A DNA stretch of 64,000 bases from a virus (IMGVR_UViG_3300021400_000134), one strand, 5' to 3'; counted from the stretch's first letter, positions 1 to 64,000 are shown. Program-made: numbers and translations. The notes: a model not told the origin generated them from the sequence alone.

Positions 1-1
1 A

Positions 2-2077
2 GAGGGAGAAAAACCTTCTTATTATACAGTTAGCTTTACTCCAGAAACAAAAACTCCTTTTGTTCCTGGGTTATATTACACTAAAACTGGTAATGAATAT
101 ACTATAGCTAATACTTTTGACTCTAGTAAGACATATTATAGATATATTGATAGATATGTTTCAGCAGATTCATCAGGTATTTATGATGTTGGTGCTAAAT
201 GGAATGAAGATATAGTACCGGTACCTAGTACTGTAACGGTATCTGGTAAGACATTTGAATGAGAATTCCAAGAGATTCCAGATTTTGCAAAAGATGTTAA
301 TACATTACATGGTTTGATTTTAAAAGTTAATGAAGTATTATTATCTGACGATAAAGTTACTAGAGATAATAACACAGTTCAAGGATGTATTAATCTAATC
401 AATGATATTCTTGACAAATTCGATCAATTAAAGCCAGCAGAAATTGTAATGGTTGATACTTATGGTAGAATCCATAGTGGCGACTGAAGTAGTGAACAGA
501 AATTCGGATACAGTAATATTGGTAAACCAAGTGCGGATCTTGCTGTGCCGACCGGAGATCCAGTTGCCGCAGATAATGAGCGCTGACTAAAATTAACCAC
601 ATCTTCTGGAATTAGTAACAATGGTTATAAGCCTCATATCAAATTGGAACATACTTTTAACAAAGTTGAAGATACTACTACTGTTGCAGATAAAAATAAT
701 ACAAATGGAGATGGCTTAAATAAAGGCAATAATGATGAATTAAAGTTATATACTCCAATAGTTGATAATACAGGTCATATTGTTGGAAATAATATAGAAA
801 CAGTCACATTGCCTTATAATTTTAAAACTGTTAATGCAGATACAGGTAGTATAATTGCTGAAAATACTTTAGATAATTTTGGTATAAAAACTGCTGATAA
901 TTGATTAAGTACATCTGTTAATAATAAAAATGTTTTAATTGCTCATGATAATCCGCAGGCTGTAGAAGCTAGAACGATTGAAAATCAAAAATTGCATTTT
1001 GGAAATAGTTTTACTGTTGAAGATTGAAGTTTTGATGCTAAAGGACATAAATCTCGTGTTGATACTCATACAGTAACAATTCCTAATTTAACTATTAGTG
1101 GAAATGGAAATCTTATTGCCAATGCAGCCACTAATGCAGAGGGTGATTTAACATTAACAAAGAATAATGTTGGAGCACTTGCTTTAACTGGATATAGTGC
1201 GATTTCAAATGAGGTTACTCCACAAGCTCCAACCGCTGAAACAACTGTGAATAATGCAATTGCCAATATAATGAGATATCTTGGTAATGGTAGCTTAAGT
1301 GCAGAAGTAGAAGATGGAAATGAGGTTGTTACCGGAATTAATCTTGCTAATGGTGCGATTACTTTAGAAAGTACGCAACTTGGAACTGCAGCTTGACAAG
1401 ATTCAACTGCATTTGATGCAGCTGGTACTGCTGCTCAGGCTAAGGCCGATGTTCTTGGAGATGCGGCAACCGCGACAGCATCAGATAATACTCTTGCCGG
1501 ACTAAGAAAATATATTGTACAAGAATTTAATAATGTTACAAATACAGGTAGCTTCTGAGGCGCCCAATTTAAATATGACAATAGTGCATATTCTAGTACA
1601 AATCAACAAGAGATTCAAATGCAAACTCAAAATGATAGAAGAGCTCTTGTACCTTTAAGTAATAGTGATGTAATTACTTATGGTAGTTTTGCTCAGGATA
1701 GTTATACAGTAAATACAAATGGTGGCATAGCAATAACTTATGCTGGACTTTATAGAGTTCAGGGATCCATTGCAGCTTCTTTTGGTAGTGGAGTATATTC
1801 GGTGAAAACTTGGATAATGAAAAGTAATGATAACTATGAAAATCCAGCTGTTATAAGTAGTGCAACAGAATCTTTAGATGAGGATAGTTTATCTGGGGGT
1901 GTTTTCTGCACTGGTTCTAAATTGGTTCAATTACAAGCTGGAGATGTTGTTTATTTAGCTTGTACTATAACTCCTGGACAAGCAGGAGGAGGAGGAGGTT
2001 CTAGTACTATTACTACTGCAACCATTCTCTATGACAACCCAGGAACATATTTCTTACTAGAAAGAATTTCTGCTTAA
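2..2077 (+). CDS. Partial (5'-truncated) tail/fibre-type structural protein with C-terminal C1q/TNF/BclA-C-like domain; read through 7 TGA (Trp)
   Basis: One frame open from nt 2 except TGA at 260, 485, 584, 902, 1025, 1394, 1556. Joins track ORFs 644..904 and 1619..2077 and ends TAA. C-terminal GIAITYAGLYRVQGSI...LVQLQAGDVVYL pattern. Confidence 0.8.
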
Positions 2078-2087
2078 TATATTCTAT

Positions 2088-2118
2088 AAGGAGGAGAGAA
2101 ATCTCCTCCTTTATTTTT
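2088..2118 (+). terminator. Intrinsic terminator
   Basis: AAGGAGGAGA-GAAA-TCTCCTCCTT hairpin followed by TATTTTT. Confidence 0.8.
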
Positions 2119-3071: not shown

Positions 3072-4829
3072 ATGCCTGCAAGTAATTTAATTCGTTTTAA
3101 ACGAGGTACTTCTGCACAGTTAGCCACAATTAAGAGTGGTAAAACAGGTGTTGATGGTGCTTTTTATTTAACTATTGATGATGCAGATGCATCGAGTAGA
3201 TTGTATGTAGGTCGTGCTAATGGTGATGTTGTGCCGGTTAACCAAGGTATTTATACGGTCACTGCTGTCACTGACTTAACGAGTAGTGTTAATAGTGGTA
3301 AATTACAGCCTGGTGATTTTGCTTATGTCACAGGTACTGCTGCTCAAAATTATACAGATGGTAATATTCTCGCTTATTGGACAGGAGATAAATGGCTCCA
3401 ATTAAATAAGGTTGATGTTACAGATAAATTCTTGAGCTCTTTGGATGTTGCTATTACCACAACAGGTGGAGTTGCTACAGTAAAACTTACTGGCTTAGAT
3501 GAAGGTGGAACAACTCTTAACGGTGCTTTAGAAACAACATTTACAATGCAAGGCGCAAATGGCGTTACTGTTTCTAACACAGATGATGCTATTACTGTTA
3601 CTGGTACATCATATGGATTAAGTTCTGCCGCAATTGCCGCAGAAAGTAATCAGGGTGTTATTTCATTAACAGGAAATGATGGTACTAATAATGCTGCTGC
3701 TGGTTCAGTAACGATTAAATCTGCTGATGGTAATCATGTTCATATTACTGGAACTGCCAATAACATTGAAATTGATACTCCAGTAGTACAAACAGCAACA
3801 CTTTCAAATGAAGCCAACGGTTTTGGTCTTCAAGTAACAGATAGTTTTAGCAATCAAACTACAAAGTCAACAATTGATCCAACTATAAAATATGGTGGAA
3901 CTGGTAGTTCTACAGCGCATTTTATTAGTGGCGAAGCTACATTAAATGTCTATAATAAAGATGAAATTGATGGCTTATTAAAGGGTCTTGATGCTTTAAC
4001 TTATAAAGGTACTGTAGGTGCTAGTGGCTCATATGCTCAAAGTGTAAGTGGAATTACCGCTTCAAGTATGCCAGCTCTTCATATTGGTGATACTTTTAAA
4101 TTAGTTGGTGATCATAGTACTCCATATGGAAATATTCCGATTAACACTGGAACTCCTCAAAGTCCTACTGTATCTACTACAGGAACAGCTCATGGTGGAG
4201 ATTTATTAATTGCCAATGGTGTTGAAACTAATGGTGAAATTACAACTCTTTATTATGATATTATCGAAGTAGAGCAGGGAGAGGATACAACTTATACAAT
4301 CACTGCTAGTGATGTAGATAAGAAGATTACAGTTGCAGATAGTCATGGCGATACTATTGGTGGAATGGCTATTGCCGCAACTGCAAATAATCCTATTGCA
4401 ATTAGTGGAGCATCTGATAGTAATAACATTGAAACAGTTACTATTGGTCATGGAGTTGTAAATCAAGCTTCTGGTTTAACTAACGGTAAGTTAAATGCTA
4501 CAACAGAAACAGCTGTTACAGATGCTAACACTATTACAGCAGTAACAGATGTTACAGTAGATGAATTTGGTCATACAACAGCATTTAAGACAAAAGAATT
4601 TGGTATTGCAAAACTTGCTGCAGTTTCAGAATCATTCTCTACATCTGCTACAGGTAATGTTGCAACAATTACAAATACTCCAACTGCTACAAATTCAGAT
4701 AGTTCACCAATAACCGCAACTGCCGGTTCTTTTGATTTAGCATCTGAAAACTTAACAGTTACTGCTCCTGCAGTAGCAGCTGGCGAAAACCCACAGGTAA
4801 TGGTTAATTTTGTTTGGGAATCATTCTAA
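3072..4829 (+). CDS. Thr/Gly-rich structural (tail fibre-like) protein, 585 aa, no TGA
   Basis: Intact ORF with RBS; N-terminal IRFKRGT module shared with neighbours. Confidence 0.8.
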   Translation: MPASNLIRFKRGTSAQLATIKSGKTGVDGAFYLTIDDADASSRLYVGRANGDVVPVNQGIYTVTAVTDLTSSVNSGKLQPGDFAYVTGTAAQNYTDGNILAYWTGDKWLQLNKVDVTDKFLSSLDVAITTTGGVATVKLTGLDEGGTTLNGALETTFTMQGANGVTVSNTDDAITVTGTSYGLSSAAIAAESNQGVISLTGNDGTNNAAAGSVTIKSADGNHVHITGTANNIEIDTPVVQTATLSNEANGFGLQVTDSFSNQTTKSTIDPTIKYGGTGSSTAHFISGEATLNVYNKDEIDGLLKGLDALTYKGTVGASGSYAQSVSGITASSMPALHIGDTFKLVGDHSTPYGNIPINTGTPQSPTVSTTGTAHGGDLLIANGVETNGEITTLYYDIIEVEQGEDTTYTITASDVDKKITVADSHGDTIGGMAIAATANNPIAISGASDSNNIETVTIGHGVVNQASGLTNGKLNATTETAVTDANTITAVTDVTVDEFGHTTAFKTKEFGIAKLAAVSESFSTSATGNVATITNTPTATNSDSSPITATAGSFDLASENLTVTAPAVAAGENPQVMVNFVWESF

Positions 4830-4961: not shown

Positions 4962-7900
4962 ATGGCTAATGATAAAATTAAGTTCTGGCCTGTTCGTGGC
5001 ACTTATGAACAAATTATAAAAGAACCATATTGCGATGGAAAGATTTATTTTGCATATGATACAAATCAAATCTTTTTAGATGTTAATGGTGAAAATAAGT
5101 GTCCGATGGGTAGTAGTAGCAGCAGTTCTGGTATTTTATATGCAGAAGCAGATAGTGATACTTTAGAAAAAGAGATACCGGAAGATGATGCCGATGATAA
5201 ATATTTTATGTCAATTAGTGCTCTTGAAGAAAATAGTCGTGAAAAGAAACTTTTTGTAGATGACTTAATTTTAAATTCTGATGGGAAATTTTTCAGAATA
5301 TTGTCAATAGATAACACTAACCAAAAAATATATTGTCAATTATTAGCTGTTAGCGGTTCTGGTGGAGGCGGAGGTGGAAGCGCCTATTCTAACCGCAGTA
5401 AGATTTACAAAGAAGATCCAGAATCTAATTACTTAATTAATGGTAGAGAATCTTCAATTAGAGTCTATGCTGTTTCTGGTAAAGATCCAGAAGATGGCAC
5501 TCAATTAGACACTAAATTAATTGTACATTGAACTTTGGCAGAAAAAACTCCGACAGGACTTTGAAGTATTTATAGCCAAAATACTTTTACTATTACAGCT
5601 TCGACTCAAGAGGAACCTATTTGAGAAGAATTTGAATTTGGTACAAAAGCGCGTCAGTCAACAACGAACTTACTTACTATGTGAGTAACAGGTAGTGCTA
5701 GTACCGAAAGCCGCAGTTTTGAATATGAGTTTTATACTTCTGAATTAGCGTTAGAAAAGCATCCAAACTTCAATAACGTTAATACATATTCTCCATCAGA
5801 TGTAAATATTTATTGTACTGCTGTTGGTGATTTAGAAAAAATAATTTATTATTATTTTGGAACAGAGGATGGTGAAATTCTTCTAAATCAGGGTGGGACA
5901 GTATTAGCTTCAGGCACATCAGAGCAGATTTATCATGTTCCTGAAGAGCTTGCTACTCATGGTGCTCACACCGTTAGGATTGAGTTATATCAGTATATTA
6001 ATGGAAAAGCTGATTTTACAGCTTCTGCTGCACCTATTCAGATGGAAATTGCTGTAATTGATCCAGATAATAGCCTTCCAGTTATTTGGTTGGGAGATTA
6101 TCAAGATGAATATTATCAATATGATAATGTTAGAATTCCTTTTAGAGTATATGACCCTAAAGCTGTAATTGGTACAAATATTACTCTTTATAAAGATACT
6201 AATAAATTGGGTGAAAGATCAATTACAGATAGCTCAGTCTTTTCTATTTGAGAAATTGTAAATACTGATTTGAATATGCGTAATTATTACAGTATTTCTT
6301 GTGGTCAAGACGAAAATGAAGTTCGTAAAGAAATTTCTTTTAATGTCGTTGAAGATCCAAATAGAAAGAATATGAAAATTGCTACAACTGGTTTAAAATA
6401 CTCTTTTGACGCCAGTGGTCGTAGTAATAGTGAATCAAGTATTAATCGTTCTACTTATGTCTATGGAGAAGGCGATAATGCAATTGCTGCAAAATTTGAA
6501 GGATTTAACTGATATAATAATGGTTGGATTACAGATTCAGAAACAGGAAATACTTGTTTAAGAATTAGTAATGGCGCTGTATTCTCAGTTCCTTTGAAGC
6601 GTACACATTTTGCTACTTCTGATACAAGTAATCAGTCTCATACTTTTGAATTCCAGTTTAAAGTAAGAAATGTTCAAGACTATAGTAGTATTGTTCATAA
6701 TATTACTCGCTATAAAGGAAATACAGAAGAAGAGCATCCTCCAGTTTTTATCTGGGATGATAGTGATAATTATCCAACAAAAGCGTATAGTACTTATAAC
6801 GATCCAAGTTTATATACCGAATGGAGCGGTGGAAAAGTTTTTGATAACTATGACGCATTCTTATCTTGGTATTTACCAGCATATGCAGAACATCATCCAG
6901 AAACAGTTGGAACAATTCCTCCGTCTTATGATAATTTGGAATATAATTATACTGAAAAATTATTAAATACAAATTATGCTGCTGGACGTTATTATGATGA
7001 TCAACATGGTATTTGTATTGGTGCACAAGATGCATTATTTACAAATGGTGTTAATACAGTAAACGTCTCTTATGTAGAAGATAAAATTGTAAATCTTACA
7101 ATCGTTTATTCTCATGGAGATGGCAAACCAAATGGCAGTAATAAATTAATGTCAATTTATTTGAATGGTGTGTTAACAGGTGTTACTCGTTCTGTATTAA
7201 ATGATGCTTGAGATATCGGTAATGATGATAATATCAATCTTGTATTCGATTCTAAGTATTGTGATTTCGATCTATACAAAATTAGAGTCTATAATCAACC
7301 ATTAACATTACCAATGGTATTAGTTAACTATATGGTTGATTTAAAAGATCCAATTGGATATGATTTGACACAATTAGCTGTTGTTAATAATACAATTAAT
7401 GAATCTCAATTAGTTTATAAAAATATGACTGATTATAATGAGGCTCATCCAGATGGATATATTATGCCATATCTTATCATCACAACAAATCCATCAGAAG
7501 ATAATAGACTACCTTGGTCTAAATCTAGAAAATTAGAAGATTATGCTCGTTTTGAATTTGTTAATACAGGCCTTGATAGAGCTTATACTACTGGTGAATT
7601 AAACCAGTTGGCTGAACGCGCCGGACAAACCGTAGAAGAGTATTATAAGCATCATTGTCCATCTTGAATTGGTGATAATATTACAATTCAGATTCAAGGA
7701 ACTTCTTCTGAATTTTATCCAAGACGTAATTATAAAGCAAAAACTAAAGATTCAAGCAAAAATGTAAATATGTATATGAACAGAGGTCCATTTGCTCAAA
7801 AGTATGTTTCAGAAGATGCTGCTGAGAAAGAGCAAACTCATTTAGACTTTTTCTATATGGACAATGACACTGTTGGTACTACAAAATTTACACTAAAGAT

Positions 7901-10900
7901 TGACTACATGGAATCTTCTGGTACTTATAACATGGGTTTTGCAAACCTTGCTAAAAATATTTATACACATCATCCACTTTATGACTATTATACAAAAGGA
8001 GCTTTTTTAACTGCTGATACAGCGTATGAAGAAGCTACTTCTTATTCAGAAGGAAAGACTTATTACTATAAGAATCATAAGGGAAATTGAAAAAATACCA
8101 CAGATGATGAATTAAAGATTGCTACTGCAGAAGAATTCAATATGGGTCCAGTTGCATATGCGCAATCTAAAGGTATTACAAAAGTATTAACTGATACTTC
8201 TGTGCCTGAATATAATAAATGATATGTAGCAACTACTGTTTATAATACAGCAGAAGTTCCAAATTATTTAGATGATTATCGTACTTCAGTACAAGGTTTC
8301 CCTGTTCTGACATTCCATGAAACAACAGATGCTAATGGAAATAGTACAGGTATTAGATTCATTGGTCGTTACAATATGCTATTAGATAAAGGCTCAGATG
8401 AAGCATTTGGATTTAAACCAGCAGAAGAGGTTTATCAAAAATTTGCAACAAACAGCAAAGGAAAACCGTTAAAGGTTAGTAAAGTTGCCGAATGTTGAGA
8501 AGCAGAAAATAACTCTCGTGGTTTCTGTTCATTCCGTGACGCCGCAACTAATAGAACAGATGATAAATTCTTTGACACTGGTACTTTAACTAATGCTGGT
8601 GCACCAATAGTGGCAGACTATTGGGAATACCGTTATCATGATAAAGCAGACTCATTAGATGTTCTTTATGAATTAAAGGATAAAATAGCTGATGAAAAGT
8701 CTATTGCTACAGTCGCTGATGAAATGGGTGTTGATATTCAGGATACAACTGTTGTTCCTTGCCCTGATCCAAAATATACCGGAACCTATACTCAAGGTAT
8801 GGCAAATGCGGGCCAGGCTTTATTAGATACTTATTCTAACTGGGAACGTGCGGTTAGATGGGTTTATAGCACAGACCAGGAAGCAGTTCCTTCCGCAGGT
8901 ACATATCGTGAAGTAGATTTAGGTCTTGAAGCTTATCAGCCAAATATTTACTATATTTTTGATGAAGAAAATAGTAAAATGGTAGAAGACCCAGAAACAG
9001 GCGAAGAAACTTATGTATATGCTTATAAATTAGATAATTCTGAAAATTATAATCCATCACAGGCTTATTATAAGAAGATTAATAATAATTATGAGCCTAT
9101 TAAGCTTTGCGCCGATTCAAGTCTAGTATATCAAACTAATACATATTATATCCTAACTACTCTTGGAGATTATGTATTAGATCCTGATACTGCATTTAAT
9201 CCAGATTATACTTACTATTTCTTAGATGCTGATGAAGCAAACAGTGGAGCTGCTTTATTGCCAGAACCTGTTGTTTATAATGGAAAAACATATACTTATG
9301 ATACAAAAGAATATCGTAATGCCAAATTTACAAATGATTTAACAAAACACTTTAATCTTGAATATCTTGTTACATACTTTATTATGACTGAAGTGTTTGA
9401 GTGTTATGACTCTCGTGGAAAGAATGCGATGTTTGCTTCTTGGGGTCCTCAAGAACAGGGTGGAGATTATATTTGATACCCAATTTTCTACGATATCGAT
9501 ACTCAATTAGGTATTAATAATACTGGTATTCCTTCATTTGAGTATTATGTAGATGCTACTGAAAATGGAACATTCTCTACTAATGATAGCTTGCTATGGA
9601 ATAACTTATATAAGAATTTCCGTGGTCAAATTATTCAGAAATATAGACAGTTAAGAGGAGCAAATTCAACATATCCTTCTTTAAGTCCAGCTCCATTGCA
9701 AACAGTAGATAGAATTGAAAAATGGTATTTAGCTGATCCTAATACAACAAATAGTTTTGCTATGAGAGGTGAAAGACCATTAATCGCGTTAAATCTTGAT
9801 GAATATTATAAATATATTACTATTACAAATCCTTTAATGGGTTATCAAGATAGAAATGGCGGTACTGGTTATGATAATGGTACTTATTTCTATGCATTAC
9901 AAGGTGATAGAAGCTTATCAAGACAGCAGTTCTTAACAAACCGTTTAAATTATATTGATTCTTGGTTGAACCAAGGCAACTATGAACGTGGTGGCACAAA
10001 TATTATTAGAGGTCGTGTTGCTGCAAATAATCCAGAAACTCAATCAGATAAGTGAATTGATATTGGAGGTAACGCTAATAATATTTCAGCGCTTAGTGAG
10101 AGTGCTTATTGGTTAGATGATGAAGAAACGCGTAAGCATCATTTATTTGATGGTGAATATTGGATTAATATGGAACCAGTAAGAAACTCATATGTAACTG
10201 TTGGTACAGACGCCGCAAACTTCCCTTCATTAAAATATACCAATCTTGAAGGGCCTGTTAGATTTATCACTTCTGATTTAGAAAATGGTGTTCGTAAAAG
10301 TGGTAACTATAGAGAGCAGCTTTACTATATCTATGGCTTAGACCAGATGAAGAGTTTAGGCGATATGAGTAGATTATACTGAGCAGAATTTAATATTGAA
10401 GGCTCCGCTGCGAAGATGACTGATTTATTGCTTGGCTATGATGGTGTAGATGAAGATAATGCGCATTATAAGAATGAAAGAATTAATATGTATGGTATCC
10501 ATGCTAGCAATTCAGCAAGTGATAAAGGCGGTATGCCATTATTAAAGAAAATTAATTTATCATATATTAAATTCAATGATGCTTCACCAACTTATGATTT
10601 TACTAGCTGTGAAAAACTTGAAGACTTTAGAGCTATTGGTTCAAATATTACTAATGTTTCATTTGCAGATGGTGTTGCTTTAAATACCTTATACTTGCCA
10701 GATACAATTAAACGTCTTGATTTAACTGAGGCAACAAAATTAAATAATATTGTTACAGATTTCAGAGTTCGTAAAGATTCTATAAATCAAGATGTTTATC
10801 CAGGACTTTATATCCCTGGTTTGACTGATAATAGTGAAAATCCAATTTCTGCAATTGAAGCGATTAATATTATTGGTGATCACATGGGTTATGATAGTTA

Positions 10901-12884
10901 TAAACTATTGCAAAACTATTTTAAAGCTAGACGTCAAGCAGGAATGTCTTCTATTACAATTACGGATGTAAAATGAACTCCTTATGAATTACTAGAAGAA
11001 GGCGCCTCTTATAATAGCGCTGAAAGCGATTCTTATTATGTAGATGACGGTCACTTTGGCTTTAAACCTTTCGTTTATAATAGTTATAATGAATGAAATT
11101 TATTAATTAAAAATGGCGAGTTATATAAATTTAATTCAACATTAGATAGTAGTATAATAAAAACAACTCAATTATTAGACCTTTTAGCAGATGAAGCTAA
11201 TTTTAATAGTGCTTCTTCTAATACTAGCACAGTTCCAACCATTACAGGAACTGTTTATGTAAACAATGATACGGCTATAAATGAAAATGATATTGAAGCA
11301 AATTTAGTAACAAAATACCCAGGAATAAAATTCTTCTTTAAAAAGGTCGATAAAGTTCCAGCCGCAAAATATGTTATTTTAAACGATGATGGAACTTATG
11401 ATGTATTGGCAAGAAAGTCTTTAAGTCAAAATGAAACTTTCTTCCCAAATCCATTGACATTAATTTCTTCAAAAGAATTGGATAAATATGATACTAGATT
11501 AAAATATGATTTCTATGGATGGGGCAGTAAAGCATTGAGTCCGGCTGGAGTAGAAGCATTAAATGATATTGAGTGGTATTTAAGCTCAAAGAATAACTTA
11601 ATTGTTACTACAAATAATCCTGATTCTGCAGCATTAACGCAAGATCAGTGGTATGACAATTGGGCAACTCAATCTGTTCAAGAAGGAGTCTATGACTATA
11701 CATTCTATGCTGTTTATGGTGTTCATAAATATATTATGACATTCTTAAATGGTGATAATAAAACAGTCGCAGGAGAACTTCGTGTTGAAGCAGATGAATT
11801 TGTTCCAATTCCAACATTTATTCCAAGCAAGGATGAATCAGATTTACCATTCGATCAAACTTATAGATTTACTGGTCAATGAGCTCTTGAAAATGGCAGA
11901 GTTTTAGCAGAAAATACAATTAAGTCTAATAGAAATTATACTTTCTATTCAGATTTTAAGCAACAATCTGTATATGATGAACCTACAAACATAGATTATT
12001 TCACATTCTCAAGTCCATTACCATATTCAGAAACAGAAGGAAGCTTAAGTGATGTTATTGCAATGACATTATTAAGCGGCTCTAATGCACTGGATCCTGC
12101 ATATAATGTAAGCGATGGTGTTGTAATTAATATCAAACCAGGCGTACATTTGTCAGGAAAAATTACTTTACCTATTCGCTCACCAGCTGGAAATCCAGTT
12201 ATTGGTGTTGGCAATAGTTTTGCAATTGCCAATAACGCAGGTGTTATTCAAAATGGTGGAAAAGATATTACTCATATTTTCTGGTATCATACAGATACAG
12301 AAAAACCAATGGTAAGATATATTAGTGTTGGCGCATTTGCAAGTACCGTTGCAGCATCTTCTGCTAGTGTTATACCTTCAAAAATAAGATATGTTGAACT
12401 TCCTGAAGGATTAAGAATCATTGGTACAAATGCTTTCTTCTGGACTAGGTCTTTAGATGTTACTTTGATGGAATTACCTTCTACTTTAATTGCAATTAAT
12501 AGTAATGCTTTTAACCAAGCATTTACATCTAATATTACTGGAGGTACATTTACAATTCCAGGAGCTGTTAGTGGTATTGGCGAAAGAGCATTTACAAATA
12601 TGGTTCGAGTAGATACGTTTAGATTTGGAACAATTGATGATCCATCTAAATTAGAGAATATCGGTGGAAGTAGATATGTAGATGGAACTTATACCGGTGC
12701 TGATGTATTTAATGGAAATGGTGCAACTCCAAATAAGCTTGAATTCTATGCCAGTAGTGAAAACCAGGTTGAAAAATGGGTTGAATTCTTAACGGGCTCA
12801 AGACAAGGAGTAGATTCTTATTTCGCAAATATGAGTCAAGCAAATAGATATTTCTACTTTAATGGAAATACCATAAATCAATAA
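4962..12884 (+). CDS. Giant virion-type protein (~2640 aa) with LamG-like, CotH-kinase-like and C-terminal BspA-type LRR regions; many TGA=Trp
   Basis: Twelve track ORFs (4962 to 12063 starts) share one frame, each except the last ending at TGA; final TAA 12882-12884. Motifs IQGTSSEFYPRRNYK, YDSRGKN, W-YPIFYDIDTQLG and LPEGLRIIGTNAF/LPSTLIAINSNAF/IPGAVSGIGERAF. Confidence 0.8.
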
Positions 12885-19263: not shown

Positions 19264-19293
19264 TTGACTCTCCTTTTACTTTTATGTTATAAT
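19264..19293 (+). promoter_or_regulatory. SigmaA-type promoter overlapping a terminator hairpin
   Basis: TTGACT-18nt-TATAAT with extended TG; -35 lies in hairpin AGGAGAGTTAA-C-TTGACTCTCCT-TTT. Confidence 0.6.
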
Positions 19294-25758: not shown

Positions 25759-25771
25759 GGAGTAATATAAT

Positions 25772-29743: not shown

Positions 29744-29748
29744 TTATT

Positions 29749-40049: not shown

Positions 40050-40289
40050 TTAATTTATTGTAAAGACAATATCGCTATCAATATGTGCATTGCGATATTT
40101 TCAAACAATCTCATATGACTCAGCATATGGGCCTTCAATTCAAACTACTCTTAAATCCCTTTCGTTGTATAACCAAAAAAGAGTATTGGGAACATCTTTT
40201 AAATATACCCAATACTCTTCTCCATCATTATCACGTCTGATTAACTGTTTTTCACGAAAGGGGTCTATGGAGCATGTTCATATGTCCAT
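40050..40289 (-). CDS. Hypothetical protein (79 aa, 3 TGA=Trp); absent from ORF track
   Basis: RBS GGGAGG; MDI-W-TCSIDPFREK...RVV-W-IEGP...EIV-W-KYR; fills the gap after nrdG. Confidence 0.65.
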
Positions 40290-43847: not shown

Positions 43848-44413
43848 TCTTCTATAATTTTAGCCAAATCTTCATAGATAAATTCGTCATCATCATATGA
43901 GTCAGTAGAATTATTTATAACGGAATAAAATGGAACCTGTTCACTGATTTTTTCAATTCTGTCTTCATTAAAGTCCTTTTCATCTGTTTTATATCTTCTG
44001 AAAATTTCTTCAATATCACTAGCATCTCTCTCTAATTGGCGAATTAGCCTAAGCGCATCATCTGTTTTTAGATAAATAATAGTTAAGTCAAGCTGCTTAT
44101 TTTTAATTAACTGTTCAATACCTCTTAGGTTAAAAACTCCAATATTAACTTTCTTAGGGTCTAAGTCACTATATCTTGTACCATATCGCCAGCCCCTAAA
44201 TACACACTGCTCAATAAAATGATTGCTTAGAAACTGACTATCTGAAAGAAAATGGTAATTAATATTGGGTCGTTCATTCCAGCGAGCTGGGCGAGTCGTA
44301 CATGAGACAATCTCATGCAACGACTCGTCGTTATCGCATATTTTTCTTAACCAAAAGTCTTTTCCAGAACCAGCTTTTCCAATTAACGCAATTATCTTAA
44401 TCTTCTTCATCAT
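43832..44413 (-). CDS. Guanylate/nucleotide kinase-like protein
   Basis: GKAGSGKD, SCTTRPAR, YHF, YGT. Confidence 0.85.
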   Translation of the reverse strand: MMKKIKIIALIGKAGSGKDFWLRKICDNDESLHEIVSCTTRPARWNERPNINYHFLSDSQFLSNHFIEQCVFRGWRYGTRYSDLDPKKVNIGVFNLRGIEQLIKNKQLDLTIIYLKTDDALRLIRQLERDASDIEEIFRRYKTDEKDFNEDRIEKISEQVPFYSVINNSTDSYDDDEFIYEDLAKIIEEAKSK

Positions 44414-48284: not shown

Positions 48285-48306
48285 TTTCTCAACACCTCTT
48301 TTATAT

Positions 48307-48335
48307 ATTATAACATAAAAAAGTCTATTTTGCAA
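48307..48335 (-). promoter_or_regulatory. SigmaA-type extended -10 promoter
   Basis: TTGCAA-17nt-TATAAT with TG. Confidence 0.65.
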
Positions 48336-52309: not shown

Positions 52310-53413
52310 CTATAGCATAATCCTCTCTTTATATAACTGTAAAAACTTTTCTAATCCATCATCAATGGGAGAATCTTTATATCCTGTTTTCATATTTTTA
52401 TCAAATATGAAACTTATCTTTATATAATTTCCATATTTATTATATAATTTTATCAAGTTCTTTTTTAATTTTTTAAATTCATCATCGCCAATTTGCTGAA
52501 ACTGGCGGTCAAGGGCAACAATAACTTCTTGAACCCCCAAGTCCATTAGAAGGTTCATTTGATAACCCGATATATTACTGCCGCAACAGGCAACAGATAT
52601 ATCATTTTCATGCCCGAAATAAGATTGATATTTTAAACAAGATTTTTCACCTTCAAAAATAATTGCTCTATTGGATAAGGCTATATTTTTTTTAGCATTA
52701 TTTAAGTTATATAAAGACATTCCAAGAGGATGATTGTACATTTTTTTATTGATTATAATAGGACGATATTTACCATACATTTCGCCATCTTCTTTGCTAA
52801 GTGTGCGGCCCCTCAACCCGATAAAGCGATTATCTTTATCGAAATGAGGAATTGATATTTGATTTCCACCTGGATAGTAACCTATCTTATTAAAATCTAT
52901 TACTTCTTGACTAATACCTTCATTTAACCAAGGCAGAATTTTTACATCGTAGTTAAGTACTTTTAGAATATCCTTATTGTAAGCTTCTAGTTTTACATTA
53001 TATTGTTTAATTTCAATCTGTTGTATTCTATCATATTTGCTAAACACAGACCAGTCTTCTAATTGGTCGCTATCATCGTCCATAACGAACGAACCAGCGA
53101 TACCAAATCTGAAAGCAATTAATCTAATAGCATCATTTAAATTAATTCTTTGATTTTTTTGAATATCATATACTTTAATGGCAAGTTCAAATATGTCAAA
53201 TGAATCATCGCCAGCAGTATATGATTTAAAAAGTCCACTGTTTTCATAGTAGTAGAGTTTGCGGCTGCCCTCTCCTGGCGGATTATGGTCAATAGTTTCT
53301 GCCAAGATACCGAAACTGGCATATTGGGGGTCACCACCCCACTCTAACAAAAGGTCGAATATGTCATTAGTCGTTAAGGCCTCTCTTATTTCTTGCTTGT
53401 CGTAATTTATCAT
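52310..53413 (-). CDS. DNA primase (TOPRIM)
   Basis: IGLRGR, IFEGEKS, ALD; adjacent to helicase. Confidence 0.85.
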   Translation of the reverse strand: MINYDKQEIREALTTNDIFDLLLEWGGDPQYASFGILAETIDHNPPGEGSRKLYYYENSGLFKSYTAGDDSFDIFELAIKVYDIQKNQRINLNDAIRLIAFRFGIAGSFVMDDDSDQLEDWSVFSKYDRIQQIEIKQYNVKLEAYNKDILKVLNYDVKILPWLNEGISQEVIDFNKIGYYPGGNQISIPHFDKDNRFIGLRGRTLSKEDGEMYGKYRPIIINKKMYNHPLGMSLYNLNNAKKNIALSNRAIIFEGEKSCLKYQSYFGHENDISVACCGSNISGYQMNLLMDLGVQEVIVALDRQFQQIGDDEFKKLKKNLIKLYNKYGNYIKISFIFDKNMKTGYKDSPIDDGLEKFLQLYKERIML

Positions 53414-53427: not shown

Positions 53428-54960
53428 TTATTCGGTATCAAATGCTCCACGTTCTACCTTAATTTGATAATCATCCATCTCAATTAACTGATAACGCCAG
53501 TCTGTTGCGAATATTGGATTAACTCTACATGTTCCTAAATCTGCTTTACACCATAAGTAGATGCCTTTATATTGACCTCTACGGTTTTTGTAAATAGACA
53601 ATTTTAGATTTGGTTTTTCATATACATTCTGTCTCAAGATAGCCTCTAACGAGTCAGTATCTTTTTGAGTTACTGGTAGAAGAATACTACCATAGTCAAT
53701 TTTATCCGCAATTGCTTTGGCGCCACGCAGCAAGTTTTGGTCAGGAGTTTCAGACTCTTGGTAATCAGCATTTAGCTGTGTAGCAGACTCAATAAAGATA
53801 CCATATTTATTACAAATATCTTTCAACCTAATTGATAACATGAATAGTACGTTATCTTCTCTTAATCTTACCCCGCCAGAGCGACGAGTAACTTCTTCCA
53901 AAATTTTCATTGAGGTATGAATATAATCATGGAAAACATATTTTATATTATGTTCTCTAATACCTTTTTTAATTCTATCTTCAACATCTTGAAGAGAAAA
54001 GTCAGGAAGTTCTTCTACATAAATAGGAGAGTTCTTTAAGATTTCTGCGGCCTTACGGACACGCTCAACTTCATCGCCTTCATACTGATTGCTAATGATG
54101 TGTTCTTCATTTACAGAAGATAAGAAAGCAAGCATCATTGTTTGAATTTCTTCTAGTTCCTGTTCAGTAGAAATATACAAGCAAGGTTCCGCAATTCCAT
54201 TTCCAATCCAACCTAGCATATCATCATAAATCATATCTGTGCCGATATAGCAACAGTCCGCAATCATGGAACGAGATTTACCGACGCCAGTGGGTGCTGA
54301 ACGAAGATAAAACTTTTTAAGTCTTGCGCCACGAGTAACCCTATTAATGAACTTACCATATAATGGTGAACCTACTTCTGGATATGTCATTAATCTATCA
54401 ATTAAGGCATCAATACCTTCACCGGCCTGGTGTGTATCTCCAAAAGTATCACTAACACATTCAAGGCGAATTGAGTCAACAATTGCATCTACTTTATCCG
54501 CAATATCTGTTAAACTCATATTATCCAGCTGTTCTTCTTGCAACTGTAGTTTTTTGGTATCAATTTCATCAGGATTGTAAATAAAATTAACATCAATGCC
54601 ATATGAGTCATAGGCTCTTAATAGAGTCATTTTCTTCATTCTACTATAGTAGAAATCAAAGGCTGACGGGATGGCTTTCTCTGCTGCACTTTTTAGCCAT
54701 TCTTCACCTTTGTTTACTGTAAAAATGGCTTCACTTTTTGGTTTTGTGGATAAGAAATCGCAAATACTCTCTATCGAAATAGAGGTAGCTCCAAGTTCAT
54801 AAACTTTATAAATAGCACCAAAGACTACTCTATGAAAATCTGATACAAAATCTTCTTCTGTAATTACATATTTATCTGTCTCTTCAAGTAATTGTGGTTT
54901 TATAAACACACTTCCAATAACCTGAACGATTGCAACTGTATCTAAATACTTACTCGCCAT
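53428..54960 (-). CDS. dnaB: Replicative DnaB-like helicase
   Basis: APTGVGKS, DYI, QLN, KNRRG. Confidence 0.88.
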   Translation of the reverse strand: MASKYLDTVAIVQVIGSVFIKPQLLEETDKYVITEEDFVSDFHRVVFGAIYKVYELGATSISIESICDFLSTKPKSEAIFTVNKGEEWLKSAAEKAIPSAFDFYYSRMKKMTLLRAYDSYGIDVNFIYNPDEIDTKKLQLQEEQLDNMSLTDIADKVDAIVDSIRLECVSDTFGDTHQAGEGIDALIDRLMTYPEVGSPLYGKFINRVTRGARLKKFYLRSAPTGVGKSRSMIADCCYIGTDMIYDDMLGWIGNGIAEPCLYISTEQELEEIQTMMLAFLSSVNEEHIISNQYEGDEVERVRKAAEILKNSPIYVEELPDFSLQDVEDRIKKGIREHNIKYVFHDYIHTSMKILEEVTRRSGGVRLREDNVLFMLSIRLKDICNKYGIFIESATQLNADYQESETPDQNLLRGAKAIADKIDYGSILLPVTQKDTDSLEAILRQNVYEKPNLKLSIYKNRRGQYKGIYLWCKADLGTCRVNPIFATDWRYQLIEMDDYQIKVERGAFDTE

Positions 54961-55480
54961 CAATACTCTCCTCGTCTAAAAATGTAAATCCAAGTTTGCG
55001 GCGACGCTCCTCGCGTTGCGGCTCTGGAATTGTTATTTCAATTACTTTTGTCTCGGGTATTTCTAAAATTTTAGCCTCGTTTTGCTGATTTGCTAACCAT
55101 ATTGAATACCAATATTTATAGGCTTTATCATACATATATGGGACAATACCAATAGAACCATTACCCTTCTCTATTGGTTCTTTCTTTATTTCATATACAT
55201 ATTTCATTGTGCGCTCTATCCCTGAGAAAGAAAAATTATTTTTCTCATGGTAAGATTTCGCTAGTCTTAAAGTTTGGTTATAATTAAATAATTTACCATA
55301 TAATTTCGCGCAATACTCCATTAAATGGTCTAAATCTTTTTCATCTTGGGATTTTGCGGCCTCTCGCTTTTCATAACAGTCTTTATGAGCATACCAGTTG
55401 CTTTTTCTAAAAAATTCAACTGTATTGGTATCAAATGACTTGCCGCAAATTCTACATTTTACTATATGTGGTTTTACCAT
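54950..55480 (-). CDS. Zn-finger hypothetical protein next to helicase
   Basis: CRIC...HKDC. Confidence 0.7.
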   Translation of the reverse strand: MVKPHIVKCRICGKSFDTNTVEFFRKSNWYAHKDCYEKREAAKSQDEKDLDHLMEYCAKLYGKLFNYNQTLRLAKSYHEKNNFSFSGIERTMKYVYEIKKEPIEKGNGSIGIVPYMYDKAYKYWYSIWLANQQNEAKILEIPETKVIEITIPEPQREERRRKLGFTFLDEESIDGE

Positions 55481-58163: not shown

Positions 58164-58976
58164 TTAAAAGGCAACTTCATGGTCGAAAATGAGTTGTTCG
58201 GCATATGGTAAAGTATGCGCCCACTCAATAAATGCATTCCATTCAACCAGTTTATGCCCTGCACGTTGATGGCAAATAGTACGAATAACCTCGTAATTTA
58301 GAGTGACTGTTCTAGTTTGAAGCCATCCATTAGGCAACCACCGCACAAGTTCTTTCCAATAACGCTTATCTTTTGTTTGGTTATACAACTGACGCAACTG
58401 TTCTAAATCACTTAAAAAACTATCAACTCTTACACTAATAATTTCTGGATCAATAAGTTGAAGATTATCTTCATAATCATCAGTTTCAAAGCAATCAAGA
58501 GTAATTGGTGTTGATGCTAATTTATGCATAGTTGATGTACTATTGGCAGCAGTGCCAACTTTATAGGTATCAAATTCTTTATACCAATATAGAGGTGCAG
58601 TAATGTCTACACATACCTGGATTTGGCGTAAAAATTTGCGGTGTTCCGGCCCAGCTTTGCAAAGCCGCATAGCTAAACTCATATCATTTGGACCAATAAA
58701 CGCATATTCATAAATGCCATCTCCATCAGTTTGTAATATTCCATTATCTCTTAACCATGCGGAATAGATATCTTCAAGGTCAGTAAACTCAGGACTATCA
58801 ATATCTAATCCTGGGTATCTGGATTCAACCCAATTAAATGCAATATCATATTCTTCTAAGTCGTCACAATTGGCTATACCAAATAAACTATCTGCTTTTT
58901 TCCAGCTTGCTAACGGGTTCCGCATACCTCTAAAAGCACCGCTAAAATTGCTTACATTAGTATTTTCAAATTTCAT
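58164..58976 (-). CDS. ThyX-like fold protein
   Basis: HRKFLRQ, DITAP, STSTMH, LP...RTVTLNY...QRAGHKLVEW. Confidence 0.55.
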   Translation of the reverse strand: MKFENTNVSNFSGAFRGMRNPLASWKKADSLFGIANCDDLEEYDIAFNWVESRYPGLDIDSPEFTDLEDIYSAWLRDNGILQTDGDGIYEYAFIGPNDMSLAMRLCKAGPEHRKFLRQIQVCVDITAPLYWYKEFDTYKVGTAANSTSTMHKLASTPITLDCFETDDYEDNLQLIDPEIISVRVDSFLSDLEQLRQLYNQTKDKRYWKELVRWLPNGWLQTRTVTLNYEVIRTICHQRAGHKLVEWNAFIEWAHTLPYAEQLIFDHEVAF

Positions 58977-59167: not shown

Positions 59168-59417
59168 AACCCTTACAATGACAACCTATTATGTCTAAAA
59201 ATTCATCAATATCATCAATGTAAGCATTTTCTTTATTATATTCTGCGGTTTGTAAGAAATCTAAATAAGAAATAATATTAATATCATACCCGTAAGCACG
59301 AGCCTTTACTAACATTGCTTCTGGATTTCTACAAACTAATGTGGCGCTTTCTTGCTGGCATAAAGCCATTAATTTTTTTGTTTTTCCGGAACCCGGTTCT
59401 CCAATAATTTTTACCAT
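59151..59417 (-). CDS. Small P-loop protein
   Basis: GEPGSGKT and YIDD in 88 aa. Confidence 0.7.
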   Translation of the reverse strand: MVKIIGEPGSGKTKKLMALCQQESATLVCRNPEAMLVKARAYGYDINIISYLDFLQTAEYNKENAYIDDIDEFLDIIGCHCKGFGGNV

Positions 59418-60409
59418 TAATTTCTATTCCCCTGGAGTGTATTATAACCCCAATCTGTACTGCTATAAAAATCAATTCAATATCTTTCACGTTCGTTTAA
59501 TGCTTCTCTCTCGCATTCTTCCAGTATTTCATACATAAATGCTTCTGGACCAGAAGTCTTCATTTCTGTATAAAATCTATTATTTGAGGAAGCAATACCG
59601 AGACCTGCTTTTATATGATCTCTTAAACGGTTTCGTAAATCTACTGATTGGCCTATATAGCACTGCCCTGAATTTATATTTGTAATTTTATAAATGCCAC
59701 AATGAGTTTGTCCAGTAGGAGTTAATCTACCTAATAAATCCATTGTAGGTCTCTTGTAGTAAAGTTCCCAAATAATTTTATTTATTGGTTCAGGGTCTTT
59801 ATTTAATTTCTTTGCTACATCTTTTAACATTGAAATATCTTCAATATCTTCTTCTGAAACCTTTATTTTATAGTAATCTTTTGACTGTTCATCAAGCATA
59901 CGTCTTTTATCTGCGGCGATTGCGGAATCTGCTTTTTCTTTTAGAATTGCAAGTTCGTTGGTGACAGTTTCTAATTCCAACTTTTTTTCGTTAATCGTAT
60001 CAGTAAAATACTTGGTGCTTTCTTCAAGAGTTTTTAGATATTCATCCTTATGTTCTTTCTCTGCTTTTTGATAGTGATACATTGCTATTTCCGCAGATTG
60101 AGACATTTTCTCTTGCATTAAATCATAAGATTTCTTGTAGATTTCTTCTGTTGCGGCTGTTGCCTGTTTGCTTATTGTGTCAATATCAGCATATAATGAG
60201 CTCTTGTGGCGCTCTAATGCGGCGGTTTCAGTTTCCGCAGAAGCAACTTCCGCATTTAGTTTGGCTATTTCATCTTGTAAACTTGAATTTTCAATTTTTA
60301 ATCTATTGTTCTTTTGGACTATTTCTTCATCAACTTTATGTTTTGGATATAAATAAATGATAATTCCAATTAATAGTCCAATTATAGCCGCACAAACTCA
60401 AATCATCAT
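59417..60409 (-). CDS. Membrane anchor + coiled coil + C-terminal GIY-YIG nuclease (330 aa, 2 TGA=Trp)
   Basis: RBS AAGGAG; MMI-W-VCAAIIGLLIGIIIY; CGIYKITN...YIGQS...ERERY-W-IDFY...WGYN; TAATG coupling at 59417. Confidence 0.8.
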
Positions 60410-61051: not shown

Positions 61052-63007
61052 TTATTCTTGCAAGAATTTTTCAATAAATTCCTGTTCGGTAATAATCGGC
61101 ACGCCCAGCTTTTTCGCAGTAAGGTTTTTAGATGAGGTGCTTGTGTTGTCGTTGTTGATTAAATAGTTTGTTTTTGCGGAAACGGCACTTGAAACTCTAC
61201 CGCCTCTAGATTCAATTTCAGATTGAAGTGCTGCTCTGTTTTTATACTGCTTTAATGAACCGGTAATTACAACTACAATATCTTTTAAATTATCTAAATT
61301 GTCTTCTTCTTTTGTGGACGTAGGCCACTTTTCTAATGCCGCACCAGCCAAGATAGCTTCACCATAATCAAAGTTTAGGATTGAGCCTACTCGTTCTGGG
61401 CCAAAACCATCAATGGTATAAAAGTCAAAGCCAGACCCCTCTTCAGTTGCATGTATAAAAGATGGAAAATCTTTGAAATGTTTAGCCAATTCTTTTGCCT
61501 GACTCAAACCAATTAATGGTATTCCAATAGCAGAAATATATCTTTCTAATGGAATATCTGAAGTTCTGATATTTTCAATCGCTTCAAGAATATTGTCTAC
61601 AGATTTAATCCCAAAACCAGATTTTGAAACCCACTCATCTCTATGATATTTTAACTCAAAAATATCGTGGAATTCTTTTACCCAATCCCAATCAATTAAT
61701 TTCCCAAGAGTTGCTTTAGAGAGACCTTTAATATCTAAGCCTTTCTTGCCACAAAAATGGTCTAAATGATTGACTAATTTGCCTTCACAGTTTGGATTAG
61801 AACAAACTAAATTTTCAACGCCATCACTGGATGTAATGATTGCGGTCGGTGCTCCACAGATAGGACAAATCTCGGGTATTTCGATCGGTTCATCGAGATC
61901 CGCAGGTTCAGCACTTAATATCTGTGGTATTATCATATTTGCTTTATAGACCTTAACTTTTAAGCCTTGTTTTAATACCTTTAAAGTGCTTTTCATTACA
62001 CTTAAATTATGAAGTGATGCACGTTCAATAACAGAACCATCTAATTCAATAGGTTCAAATACTGCTACTGGTGTTAAAATACCGGTTCTTCCCATAGTCC
62101 AATCTATATATTTTAATGTAGATTCAACCACTTCTATTTCTGGTTTCCAAGCAATTCCATTTTTGAAATGATGAGAAGTTTGCCCCAAAGAGTTTCCATA
62201 TTCAGTATCATTAAATTTCCAAACAACACCATCACAAGGATATTCGTCTTTGAAAGATATAATTATATTATTCGTTGATTTAATTTCATCCATTGGTATA
62301 TCTGTAATAAAATAAACTATTTCAAATCCGTAGGATTGAATTTCAGCTAACTTTTCACTTAATAGTTTATAATTACTACCAACAATAACATCCCAAGCAA
62401 TAAAAGATAATTTTCTATCTTTTACTAATTGAGTATCTAATACATTAAGAGCACCTGCTGCTGCGTTTCTTGGATTTTTGAACTCATTATTTTTATTTAT
62501 TTCTTCAAAATCTGGTATTTTAATTATAGCTTCACCATCAACAATAAGCTCTTTTTGATATGGAATTTCCATTGGAACATTCTGAAATTGTTTAATATGC
62601 TCAGTAATGTCAGTACCTTCAACTCCATTACCGCGGGTGTTTGCGGAAATCAATTTACCATTATTATATTTGATGCGTACTGATAAACCATCTAGTTTTA
62701 ACATCGCTATCATTTTGTGATTATTCGCAAAATCCGCAACCTCCTCGTCGGAGTGGCACTTGTCTAGACTAAGCATTGGTTTCGGTGTAATAGGAACTCT
62801 TTTTAAAGAGGATAAAACCGGTGCTCCAATTTTTTGTGTCGGACTAATGGAAAGGATAAAATCATTTTCTTTTTCAAAATTGGAAATCTGCTGAAACCAG
62901 TAGTCATATTCTTGATCCGACATAATTGGATTTTCTGAATTATAATATGCATCGGAGGCTTCATTTAATCTATGAACGAGTTGAGAGTATTCTTCTTTTA
63001 ATAACAT
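61052..63007 (-). CDS. ligA: NAD-dependent DNA ligase
   Basis: KLDG, TRGNG, NPRNAAAG, DGVV, GRTG, Zn finger, BRCT. Confidence 0.96.
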   Translation of the reverse strand: MLLKEEYSQLVHRLNEASDAYYNSENPIMSDQEYDYWFQQISNFEKENDFILSISPTQKIGAPVLSSLKRVPITPKPMLSLDKCHSDEEVADFANNHKMIAMLKLDGLSVRIKYNNGKLISANTRGNGVEGTDITEHIKQFQNVPMEIPYQKELIVDGEAIIKIPDFEEINKNNEFKNPRNAAAGALNVLDTQLVKDRKLSFIAWDVIVGSNYKLLSEKLAEIQSYGFEIVYFITDIPMDEIKSTNNIIISFKDEYPCDGVVWKFNDTEYGNSLGQTSHHFKNGIAWKPEIEVVESTLKYIDWTMGRTGILTPVAVFEPIELDGSVIERASLHNLSVMKSTLKVLKQGLKVKVYKANMIIPQILSAEPADLDEPIEIPEICPICGAPTAIITSSDGVENLVCSNPNCEGKLVNHLDHFCGKKGLDIKGLSKATLGKLIDWDWVKEFHDIFELKYHRDEWVSKSGFGIKSVDNILEAIENIRTSDIPLERYISAIGIPLIGLSQAKELAKHFKDFPSFIHATEEGSGFDFYTIDGFGPERVGSILNFDYGEAILAGAALEKWPTSTKEEDNLDNLKDIVVVITGSLKQYKNRAALQSEIESRGGRVSSAVSAKTNYLINNDNTSTSSKNLTAKKLGVPIITEQEFIEKFLQE

Positions 63008-63071
63008 ACGAGTCCTTTCTTACACATTTATATTATATCATAATTTTTATAAAAAGAAAAGGTATAATTTC

Positions 63072-63998
63072 TTATACCTTTGAAACAGATTGTAATCTAT
63101 CTTTTAATACTATATTGCCAGCTGCGGTTCTGCCTAAAATTGGGATTTCTTTTGCGGAAATACAAATGGATTTAGAAACCCCAATAGCCAAGACTGAATC
63201 TTCGTCACTTAGTAATGCCGCAGATGCTACATCATCAGATGACTTGTAGCAAGTAATTCCCTTACCACCTCGCTTCTGGAGGACTAAATCACTTGCCGCA
63301 ATTCTCTTACCAAAACCGCCAGTAGAGAAAATACCGAGCGAGTCATTACTATCTCTTACTACAAGGGTAGAAACAACTTCATCTCCATCATTTAAGTTAA
63401 TACCCTTAACGCCAGAAGTTGCTCTTGATGTTGGCGAAATCTCGGTTGAATTAAATTTAATGCACATACCCTTTTTGGTAATTAAGATAATGGGTTCGTC
63501 TTTAACAAGTGATACATTAGCAAGATTATCGCCTTCTCTTAATGTAATTGCGCCAATACCAGTTTTCTTCCTTGTCTTAGTATATTCTTCAAGAGAGGTT
63601 TTCTTTACTAATCCATTTTTGGTTGTAAATAACACATATTTAGCATCAGTATCTCTATAAATTGAATAGATTACTGTTGGATTTTCATTTGGCTGCATCT
63701 GAATTAAATTCTTAATAGATACACCCTTTGTGGCGTTGGTGCCTTCTGGAATTGAATCAACGATTAAGCGATACATATTACCCTTGTCAGAGAATATCAT
63801 TAGTGAATCAATTGTGTTCGTTCGAATTACCGCATTCACAATATCATCTGCGGTTTTAACCCCCTTGCCACCTCTACGCTGGGTGCGGAATGAGGAAGTT
63901 GGTATTCTCTTAATTAAACCTGAATCTGTCATTACAACAACCACTTTTTCAGGTTCAACATATTGGATTTCTTTATCTTCTTTTTTAACTTCAATTTG
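63072..63998 (-). CDS. gyrA: Type II topoisomerase subunit A, C-terminal beta-pinwheel (partial, runs off window)
   Basis: GyrA-box QRRGGKG and repeated blades. Confidence 0.9.
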   Translation of the reverse strand, partial: QIEVKKEDKEIQYVEPEKVVVVMTDSGLIKRIPTSSFRTQRRGGKGVKTADDIVNAVIRTNTIDSLMIFSDKGNMYRLIVDSIPEGTNATKGVSIKNLIQMQPNENPTVIYSIYRDTDAKYVLFTTKNGLVKKTSLEEYTKTRKKTGIGAITLREGDNLANVSLVKDEPIILITKKGMCIKFNSTEISPTSRATSGVKGINLNDGDEVVSTLVVRDSNDSLGIFSTGGFGKRIAASDLVLQKRGGKGITCYKSSDDVASAALLSDEDSVLAIGVSKSICISAKEIPILGRTAAGNIVLKDRLQSVSKV

Positions 63999-64000
63999 AG

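Follow-up and report, generated by a model that had tools for sequence, protein, structure and literature searches.

The closest described relatives of the recoding system considered here are the Agate phages of the animal and human gut, one of them from cattle, whose genomes measure 154 ± 27 kb (127-180 kb) and in which TGA stops are depleted, a recoded intron endonuclease is inserted in an early gene and close relatives keep the standard code (Borges et al., bioRxiv 10.1101/2021.08.26.457843; Nat Microbiol 2022). Suppressor tRNAs were recovered in only 35% of the code-4 genomes of that study, and non-canonical tRNAs were suspected (Borges et al., 10.1101/2021.08.26.457843). A second group, the crAss-like and Lak phages, uses code 15, in which TAG is read as glutamine (Gln) (Yutin et al. 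2021, PMC7886860; Peters et al. 2022, PMC9523058). Theta (hepatitis delta virus-like) ribozymes adjoin suppressor tRNAs in recoded gut phages, and an effect on the code switch has been proposed for them (Kienbeck et al. 2024, PMC10879173), while a 2026 survey notes, in general terms, that jumbo phages with recoding have introns in tRNAs.

Here we report the analysis of a 64,000-nucleotide (nt) stretch of the viral genome IMGVR_UViG_3300021400_000134 (the window, positions 1 to 64,000), in which late genes use TGA as a sense codon, core replication genes are free of it, and a suppressor tRNA gene with the anticodon UCA is divided by an intron. The initial annotation had called recoding concentrated in structural and lysis genes an established phenomenon, and the same split is indeed found in the TGA-recoded Agate phages (Borges et al., 10.1101/2021.08.26.457843). 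The likeness extends to a large gut genome, TGA read as tryptophan (Trp, W) in structural and lysis genes, free replication genes, a TGA suppressor tRNA, a depletion of TGA stops, an early-region endonuclease that is recoded and close standard-code relatives; the difference is that a group I intron interrupts the suppressor of the window and hides it from standard tRNA finders. This is a comparison by description, the Agate clade itself being a matter of terminase phylogeny and the terminase lying outside the window. With the code 15 phages the window shares early genes that fit the host code, recoded late structural genes and a phage-encoded suppressor tRNA, whereas those phages reassign another stop codon to another amino acid, infect Bacteroidota, belong to unrelated lineages and have proteomic proof. 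The Theta ribozymes likewise are physically linked to the maturation of a suppressor tRNA, but they trim the 3' trailer whereas the intron of the window cuts the anticodon, and introns are unmentioned in PMC10879173. A literature search returned no paper on a group I intron within the anticodon of a phage suppressor, a blank search that is not a proof of novelty. The overall pattern is already published and the window is a well-resolved further case of it; the split suppressor tRNA is its most interesting element.

The window very probably represents about one third of the genome, roughly 130-180 kb in length, of a tailed, SPbeta-like phage whose DNA was sampled in a rumen or gut metagenome. 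Exact matches to its proteins occur on two metagenome scaffolds (129.6 and 169.3 kb) that derive from a single biosample, and no DNA match for it was found in the GenBank phage collection. The closest cultured phages are the Enterococcus phages VRE9 and EF1 (~140 kb) and Bacillus phage SPbeta, which we take to be standard-code phages and which share with the window a replication module comprising a YorL-like DnaE (38-40% identical) and YorF-, YorH-, DnaB- and RecJ-like proteins. From IMG/VR, which contains many relatives, we used the sister phages G1 (177.8 kb), G2 (176.4 kb) and G3 (161 kb, first 160 kb used) and the more distant G5 (195.6 kb); the last is a standard-code relative (coding density 0.867 under code 11 vs 0.887 under code 4), and a suppressor tRNA was not found in it. 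GC content is even throughout the window (32-37%), which is divided near 37 kb, where the GC skew flips, into two divergent gene blocks. G1 and G2 are collinear with the window across the module junction (34.7-38 kb), and at least four assemblies made independently (130-178 kb) show the complete architecture, so that the layout is not an assembly artefact. In the upstream DNA (L001) TGA-rich long open reading frames (ORFs) go on, and the late block extends beyond the start of the window.

Distribution and meaning of TGA

The late block contains 117 TGA and 89 TGG codons in 25 ORFs, whereas the early block, with two recoded accessory genes set aside, has 0 TGA and 83 TGG in 24 ORFs (Fisher's exact test on early vs late, P = 8e-19 with all 26 early ORFs and P = 3e-20 without the GIY-YIG gene). 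Reading TGA as a sense codon (code 4) instead of a stop (code 11) raised the coding density of the late block from 0.587 to 0.945 and its mean ORF length from 164 to 425 amino acids (aa), while the early block changed from 0.906 to 0.929. Both the codon counts per gene and the densities per region thus bear out the split that the initial annotation had described. TGA alone, never TAA or TAG, interrupts the reading frames; about half of the genes in the window are recoded, and TGA makes up ~57% of the Trp codons in the recoded tail, tail-fibre, endolysin, resolvase and accessory nuclease genes.

The early core comprises dUTPase, NrdG, NrdD, DnaE, an SF1 helicase, a RecJ-like protein, primase, DnaB and LigA, together with YorH-, YorF- and AAA_24-like proteins and the end of GyrA. 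Six of these (DnaE, NrdD, LigA, RecJ-like, DnaB and primase) had been singled out as rich in Trp and devoid of in-frame TGA; these identifications proved correct, and the six genes contain 47 TGG and 0 TGA between them. The void is a property of the core replication genes, which use TGA neither as sense codon nor as stop and are code-neutral in that sense, and not of the whole early block, within which two genes carry TGA (three codons at 40050-40289 and two at 59417-60409). It is kept in G1 and G2. In the same way, TGA is concentrated in structural and lysis genes as had been claimed, and the split is not absolute, some late genes being without it. The phrase "two genetic codes" used by the initial annotation is loose wording for what is one late code, with TGA as Trp, plus a set of genes that read alike before and after the switch.

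The use of TGA as a stop codon points in the same direction. None of the ~54 ORFs in the window ends in TGA, so the earlier statement that genes end only in TAA or TAG holds for all of them. The TGA-free ORFs are identical under code 11 and code 4, which means that all of them end in TAA or TAG. In G5, TGA closes 42 of 208 ORFs (~20%), including 4 of the 21 orthologues of early genes of the window, whose counterparts in the window end in TAA or TAG; given 20% TGA stops, the chance of finding none in ~54 ORFs is 0.8^54, or ~6e-6. TGA has thus been lost as a stop in the recoded lineage, the path proposed by Borges et al. (10.1101/2021.08.26.457843), and the purge is window-wide because the suppressor would read such stops through. 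At the base following TGA, T was mildly depleted (0.13-0.21 vs ~0.22) and C, the leakiest context in E. coli, was not enriched (P = 0.19 in the window, P = 0.002-0.04 in the sisters).

To avoid biased or circular alignment, TGA was masked as X in the homology searches on its meaning. The two masked sites in the Cpl-7 repeats of the endolysin (2/2) faced W of PDB 5i8l, and in its GH25 domain one site faced the conserved W of 4kru and the other a glycine (Gly, G), so that three of the four endolysin sites are opposite W. A masked site in the late GIY-YIG gene (21696-22319) lay opposite the tryptophan in the RW motif of I-TevI. Against G5, W occupied 11 of 27 masked sites of the window (T 4, F 3, G 0), and the corresponding figures for the sisters were 37/64 (G1), 42/77 (G2) and 25/61 (G3), a range of 41-58% across the four genomes. 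TGA and TGG are swapped freely at aligned sites between the window and its sisters, and also among paralogous repeats. All eight repeat positions quoted in the initial annotation (8/8) carry the codon it reported within the motif it reported: GQW has TGG at 17453 and TGA at 17993, with an identical 21-residue context at both sites; the Cpl-7 motif G(L/I)WGNG has TGG at 34123 and TGA at 34276 and 34423; and the terminal W(Q/R/K)RTA motif has TGG at 25741 and TGA at 28039 and 30208. In the fibre motif NMPPYLVVYxWKRT, a homologue in the cultured, standard-code bacterium Longibaculum muris has TGG in NMPPYLVVYMWKRT opposite the masked TGA of the window, and TGG also stands opposite a window TGA in WGNG. 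Alignments to PDB entries, I-TevI, G5 and L. muris all favour W, and at the level of homology the assignment of TGA to Trp is secure. Two near-terminal TGA codons (3024 and 16144) were considered as old read-through stops and rejected, since both face W of G5 and not its stop.

The split suppressor tRNA gene

A tRNA-Trp-like gene with the anticodon UCA lies at 35729-36006 on the plus strand and is split by a 206-nt intron. Default ARAGORN and Rfam reported zero tRNAs across the window, because the group I intron divides the gene; relaxed ARAGORN flagged the split interval, and the UCA tRNA of G1 at the syntenic spot allowed a locus alignment that exposed the two halves in the window 206 nt apart. 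The joined exons fold as a canonical 72-nt type I cloverleaf with the loop CU-UCA-AC and with A1-U72, G5-C68 and G73, which we take to be identity features of bacterial tRNA-Trp. The Rfam model Intron_gpI matched the insert over its full length, including the AAGAUAUAGUCC core (18.4 bits, E = 0.017), and a consensus fold computed from six alleles, that of the window and five from sisters, recovered the tRNA stems across the intron, with compensatory changes in 30 of 70 pairs. In all intron alleles (7/7) the splice site follows U34 and the final base is G, and the intron-free alleles share the loop CTTCAAC, the same loop without an intron, which fixes the splice junction. The insert has the features of a group I intron in the anticodon loop, like that of cyanobacterial tRNA-Leu UAA, and may be self-splicing.

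The locus varies among the sister phages. Seven alleles carry the intron, that of the window and those of six sisters, one of which (L006:12801-13194) has a 322-nt intron with an extra insertion of ~120 nt; three sisters have intron-free 72-nt alleles (L009:12269-12340, L010:12245-12316 and L012:22174-22245). G1 has a different UCA tRNA of 95 nt, whose variable arm is long and whose CCA end is encoded (58412-58506; L008:21181-21275), despite which its masked TGA sites face Trp in the proportion given above. An ARAGORN run over the whole record of G2 gave 28 tRNAs and no tRNA-Trp(CCA), which G1 and G3 each have; the sole Trp-type tRNA found in G2 is its intron-split UCA gene. The ORFs beside the tRNA gene lack TGA in the window and in both G1 and G2, the Hsp20-like orthologues included; the 130-aa ORF is missing at this spot in G1 and G2 and thus represents a small insertion into the tRNA unit.

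Host, decoding model and alternatives

We consider it highly likely that the phage combines TGA-recoded late genes and TGA-free replication genes with its own opal suppressor in a host that uses the standard code. Replication genes would be read alike on unmodified host ribosomes and after the switch, because there is no TGA in them. The UCA tRNA would be made from a separate TGA-free unit with a consensus host-type promoter, and the group I intron would have to leave the anticodon loop for the tRNA to function. The mature tRNA, presumably charged by the host tryptophanyl-tRNA synthetase (TrpRS), would then compete with release factor 2 (RF2) and place Trp at UGA, and full-length tail, tail-fibre, endolysin, resolvase and some accessory nuclease proteins would appear only after the tRNA acts.

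The host is most likely a walled, standard-code Gram-positive member of the Bacillota, perhaps near Erysipelotrichaceae, as suggested by the UCA suppressor tRNA, the TGA-free early genes, the GH25/Cpl-7 peptidoglycan lysin and the Bacillota-infecting relatives. A phage-borne suppressor and TGA-free early genes would be sensible only where the host stops at TGA. Lysin and fibre tips are 67-70% identical to an L. muris locus, and the C-terminal lysin module is 47% identical to one in a metagenome-assembled genome of Erysipelotrichaceae. The locus in L. muris DSM 29487 (NZ_SMCQ01000001.1, ~361.7-366.6 kb) comprises a tail-fibre tip and Cpl-7 lysin repeats with 43-70% identity by segment, and may be a prophage and a lead to host range. 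When 81 genomes from the Longibaculum family were searched at the DNA level, homologous genes (67-89% identity) came up and no spacer-like match, with only three candidates scored per genome by a tool ill-suited to 30-nt spacers.

Several observations weigh against this model. The split is not clean: two TGA-bearing genes lie inside the early block, and the late genes at 3072-4829, 13204-15354 and 30435-32205 and the holin-like gene are without TGA. Strong consensus promoters, pattern matches alone, occur within the recoded block (19264 and 24588). The Rfam score of the intron lies under the gathering score (18.4 vs 50 bits). Genes for release factors of the RF-1 family (RF1, RF2) and for TrpRS were not found in five sister records. 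The reading of TGA as Trp comes from homology; in the code 15 phages TAG as Gln has been proven by proteomics, and peptides with TGA as Trp were not reported (Peters et al., PMC9523058). Finally, the standard code of the host is deduced indirectly.

The same decoding allows for more than one origin of the block pattern. In the model of Borges et al. (10.1101/2021.08.26.457843) it would be a selected timer that delays translation of lysis, tail and nuclease genes until the suppressor builds up, a serious possibility that we hold tentatively; alternatively, it may be a passive by-product of the need for early genes to function ahead of the suppressor. Consensus host-type promoters stand inside the recoded block (12/12 at 24588), the endolysin is recoded, and so are nuclease genes that lie within early operons, as is the early intron endonuclease of that study; if the sites at 19264 and 24588 are true host-type promoters, late mRNAs could arise early and TGA would be the sole brake. 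However, the holin-like gene is TGA-free here (its orthologues in G1 and G2 have two TGA each), only 4 of the 23 Trp codons of the endolysin are TGA, a second early GIY-YIG gene between nrdD and nrdG (40792-41466) has 0 TGA, and the data fit selection for delay and relaxed constraint after gain of the suppressor alike. A further proposal, which we think unlikely, is that self-splicing of the anticodon intron gates the switch from host to late code, ribozyme activity, for example a dependence on guanosine or Mg2+, setting the timing of tail, lysin and nuclease translation; if so, sisters with intron-bearing, intron-free and long-arm tRNAs would differ in switch timing.

Code-4 bacteria occur among low-GC relatives of Erysipelotrichales, and since the phage has a low GC content, one might suppose that the host itself reads TGA as Trp, like code-4 Mollicutes, with the TGA-free replication genes a result of codon bias or recent import. 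We regard this as very improbable. The early and late codon counts are not a product of drift, and the early void persists in G1 and G2; a UCA tRNA of the phage's own would be redundant; and the sister phage G5 ends genes with TGA. About half of the genes are recoded here, against ~90% where phage and host share a code (Borges et al., 10.1101/2021.08.26.457843). The phage also encodes a GH25/Cpl-7 peptidoglycan lysin, whereas the known code-4 Mollicutes have no cell wall.

That TGA encodes another residue, be it Gly (code 25, as in Absconditabacteria/Gracilibacteria), selenocysteine or cysteine, or that the frames are decaying pseudogenes, is scarcely credible, even though ARAGORN tags every UCA tRNA as "SeC", bacteria of the SR1 type with code 25 inhabit the rumen, and one masked GH25 site faces G. 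Masked TGA sites align with W at the frequencies reported above; Gly takes none of the 27 sites of the window and is outside the eight commonest residues at those of the sisters, and only about half of the genes are recoded instead of ~90%, so that Gly is excluded on these alignments. The tRNA, a type I cloverleaf of 72 nt, bears Trp identity features and lacks the 8/5 long-arm form of selenocysteine tRNAs, and against pseudogenes speaks that TGA alone interrupts frames whose density is restored by reading it through. That assembly fused a code-4 phage with a standard-code one into a chimera, as the metagenome source, the opposite strands of the modules and the skew flip might suggest, has a negligible probability given the collinear junction, the recurring architecture, the even GC content and the recoded genes on the minus strand at 36865-38032 and within the early block.

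Further features of the window and implications

The coordinates of the features are collected in Table 1. Promoter- and terminator-like elements in it are consensus matches and not proof of function.

Table 1. Features of the 64,000-nt window
Feature	Position	Strand	Remarks
Late block (tail, tail-fibre, lysis)	1-35059	+	TGA as sense codon; family matches to tail, tail-fibre and virion proteins and endolysin
974-aa repeat protein	16322-19246	+	19 TGA, 5 TGG; GQW repeat pair
GIY-YIG gene	21696-22319	+	Late block; TGA-bearing
Tail-fibre cassette	24805-30225	+	Tail-fibre PHROGs; three C-terminal ...NMPPYLxVYxW(Q/R/K)RTA ends
Endolysin	32785-34716	+	GH25 muramidase domain and Cpl-7 repeats; endolysin PHROGs; 4 TGA, 19 TGG
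Holin-like protein	34730-35059	+	Two membrane helices (hydropathy); 0 TGA, 3 TGG
Terminator-like hairpin	35042-35069	+	Closes lysis operon
Promoter-like TTGACT-17-TATAAT	35079-35107	+	Opens tRNA unit
Hsp20-like ORF	35323-35694	+	TGA-free; weak HSP20 match, E = 0.0026
Suppressor tRNA exon 1	35729-35762	+	Ends at U34 of UCA anticodon
Group I intron, 206 nt	35763-35968	+	In anticodon loop; preceded by U, last base G
Suppressor tRNA exon 2	35969-36006	+	CCA end not encoded
130-aa ORF	36032-36424	+	TGA-free; directly 3' of tRNA
ORF with one membrane helix	36433-36846	+	TGA-free; last in tRNA unit
Bidirectional terminator-like hairpin	36845-36891		3' of tRNA unit
Membrane protein	36865-37539	-	Recoded, 3 TGA
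RuvC-like Holliday-junction resolvase	37523-38032	-	Recoded, 3 TGA
Replication/nucleotide-metabolism block	38260-64000	-	Core genes without TGA as sense or stop
Recoded island, 79-aa ORF	40050-40289	-	Directly downstream of nrdG; 3 TGA
NrdD	41471-43753	-	6 TGG, 0 TGA
DnaE	44397-48335	-	19 TGG, 0 TGA
DHH/RecJ-like protein	50569-52308	-	6 TGG, 0 TGA
Primase	52310-53413	-	3 TGG, 0 TGA
DnaB	53428-54963	-	4 TGG, 0 TGA
Recoded island, 330-aa protein	59417-60409	-	Membrane helix, coiled coil, GIY-YIG nuclease domain; 2 TGA
LigA (NAD-dependent ligase)	61052-63007	-	9 TGG, 0 TGA

Among the recoded genes on the minus strand, the product of the 79-aa ORF is kept in nine relatives at 27-52% identity, its TGA sites standing opposite W, F, L or Y, and the masked sites of the resolvase face W, H and F in G5. 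The 330-aa protein has an unusual architecture, in which an N-terminal membrane helix and a coiled coil of ~200 aa precede a C-terminal GIY-YIG domain. Its TGA codons are codons 4 and 311, of which the second faces W in the G5 orthologue and, by eye against I-TevI, is read as the ...Y-W-I... position of the GIY-YIG fold; code 11 would shorten the nuclease domain. PDB searches with the resolvase and with this early-block GIY-YIG protein gave no match.

Within the late block, 4962-12884 (+) is a single 2640-aa ORF with 17 TGA and a BspA-type leucine-rich repeat near its C-terminus, the G5 orthologue of which has 2603 aa and is 38% identical. A match to the plant Rfam family snoR117 inside this giant ORF (8986-9065, minus strand) was below threshold (36 bits vs a gathering score of 42) and is probably due to chance. 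The 716-aa protein at 13204-15354 (+), amid recoded genes, has 7 TGG and 0 TGA; TGA/TGG counts in its orthologues in G1 and G2 are 0/9 and 1/9, and the protein may be produced ahead of the switch, or its gene may be a recent acquisition. A perfect TTGACA-17-TATAAT site (12/12) occupies the gap ahead of the recoded tail-fibre cassette (24588-24616, plus strand), and a site matching the promoter consensus at 11 of 12 positions lies at 19264-19293 (+), ahead of 19314-21683.

Annotated under code 11, about one in two genes of this phage is broken, and half of the late block then seems non-coding or fragmented. Knowledge of why phages recode is unchanged by the window. It provides a clean example of the early-neutral, late-recoded layout from among the SPbeta-like phages of Gram-positive bacteria, and its standard-code sister G5 reveals the purging of TGA stops. 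Because suppressor genes can be hidden by introns, surveys may under-count them, which offers a concrete reason for the misses in Borges et al. (10.1101/2021.08.26.457843).

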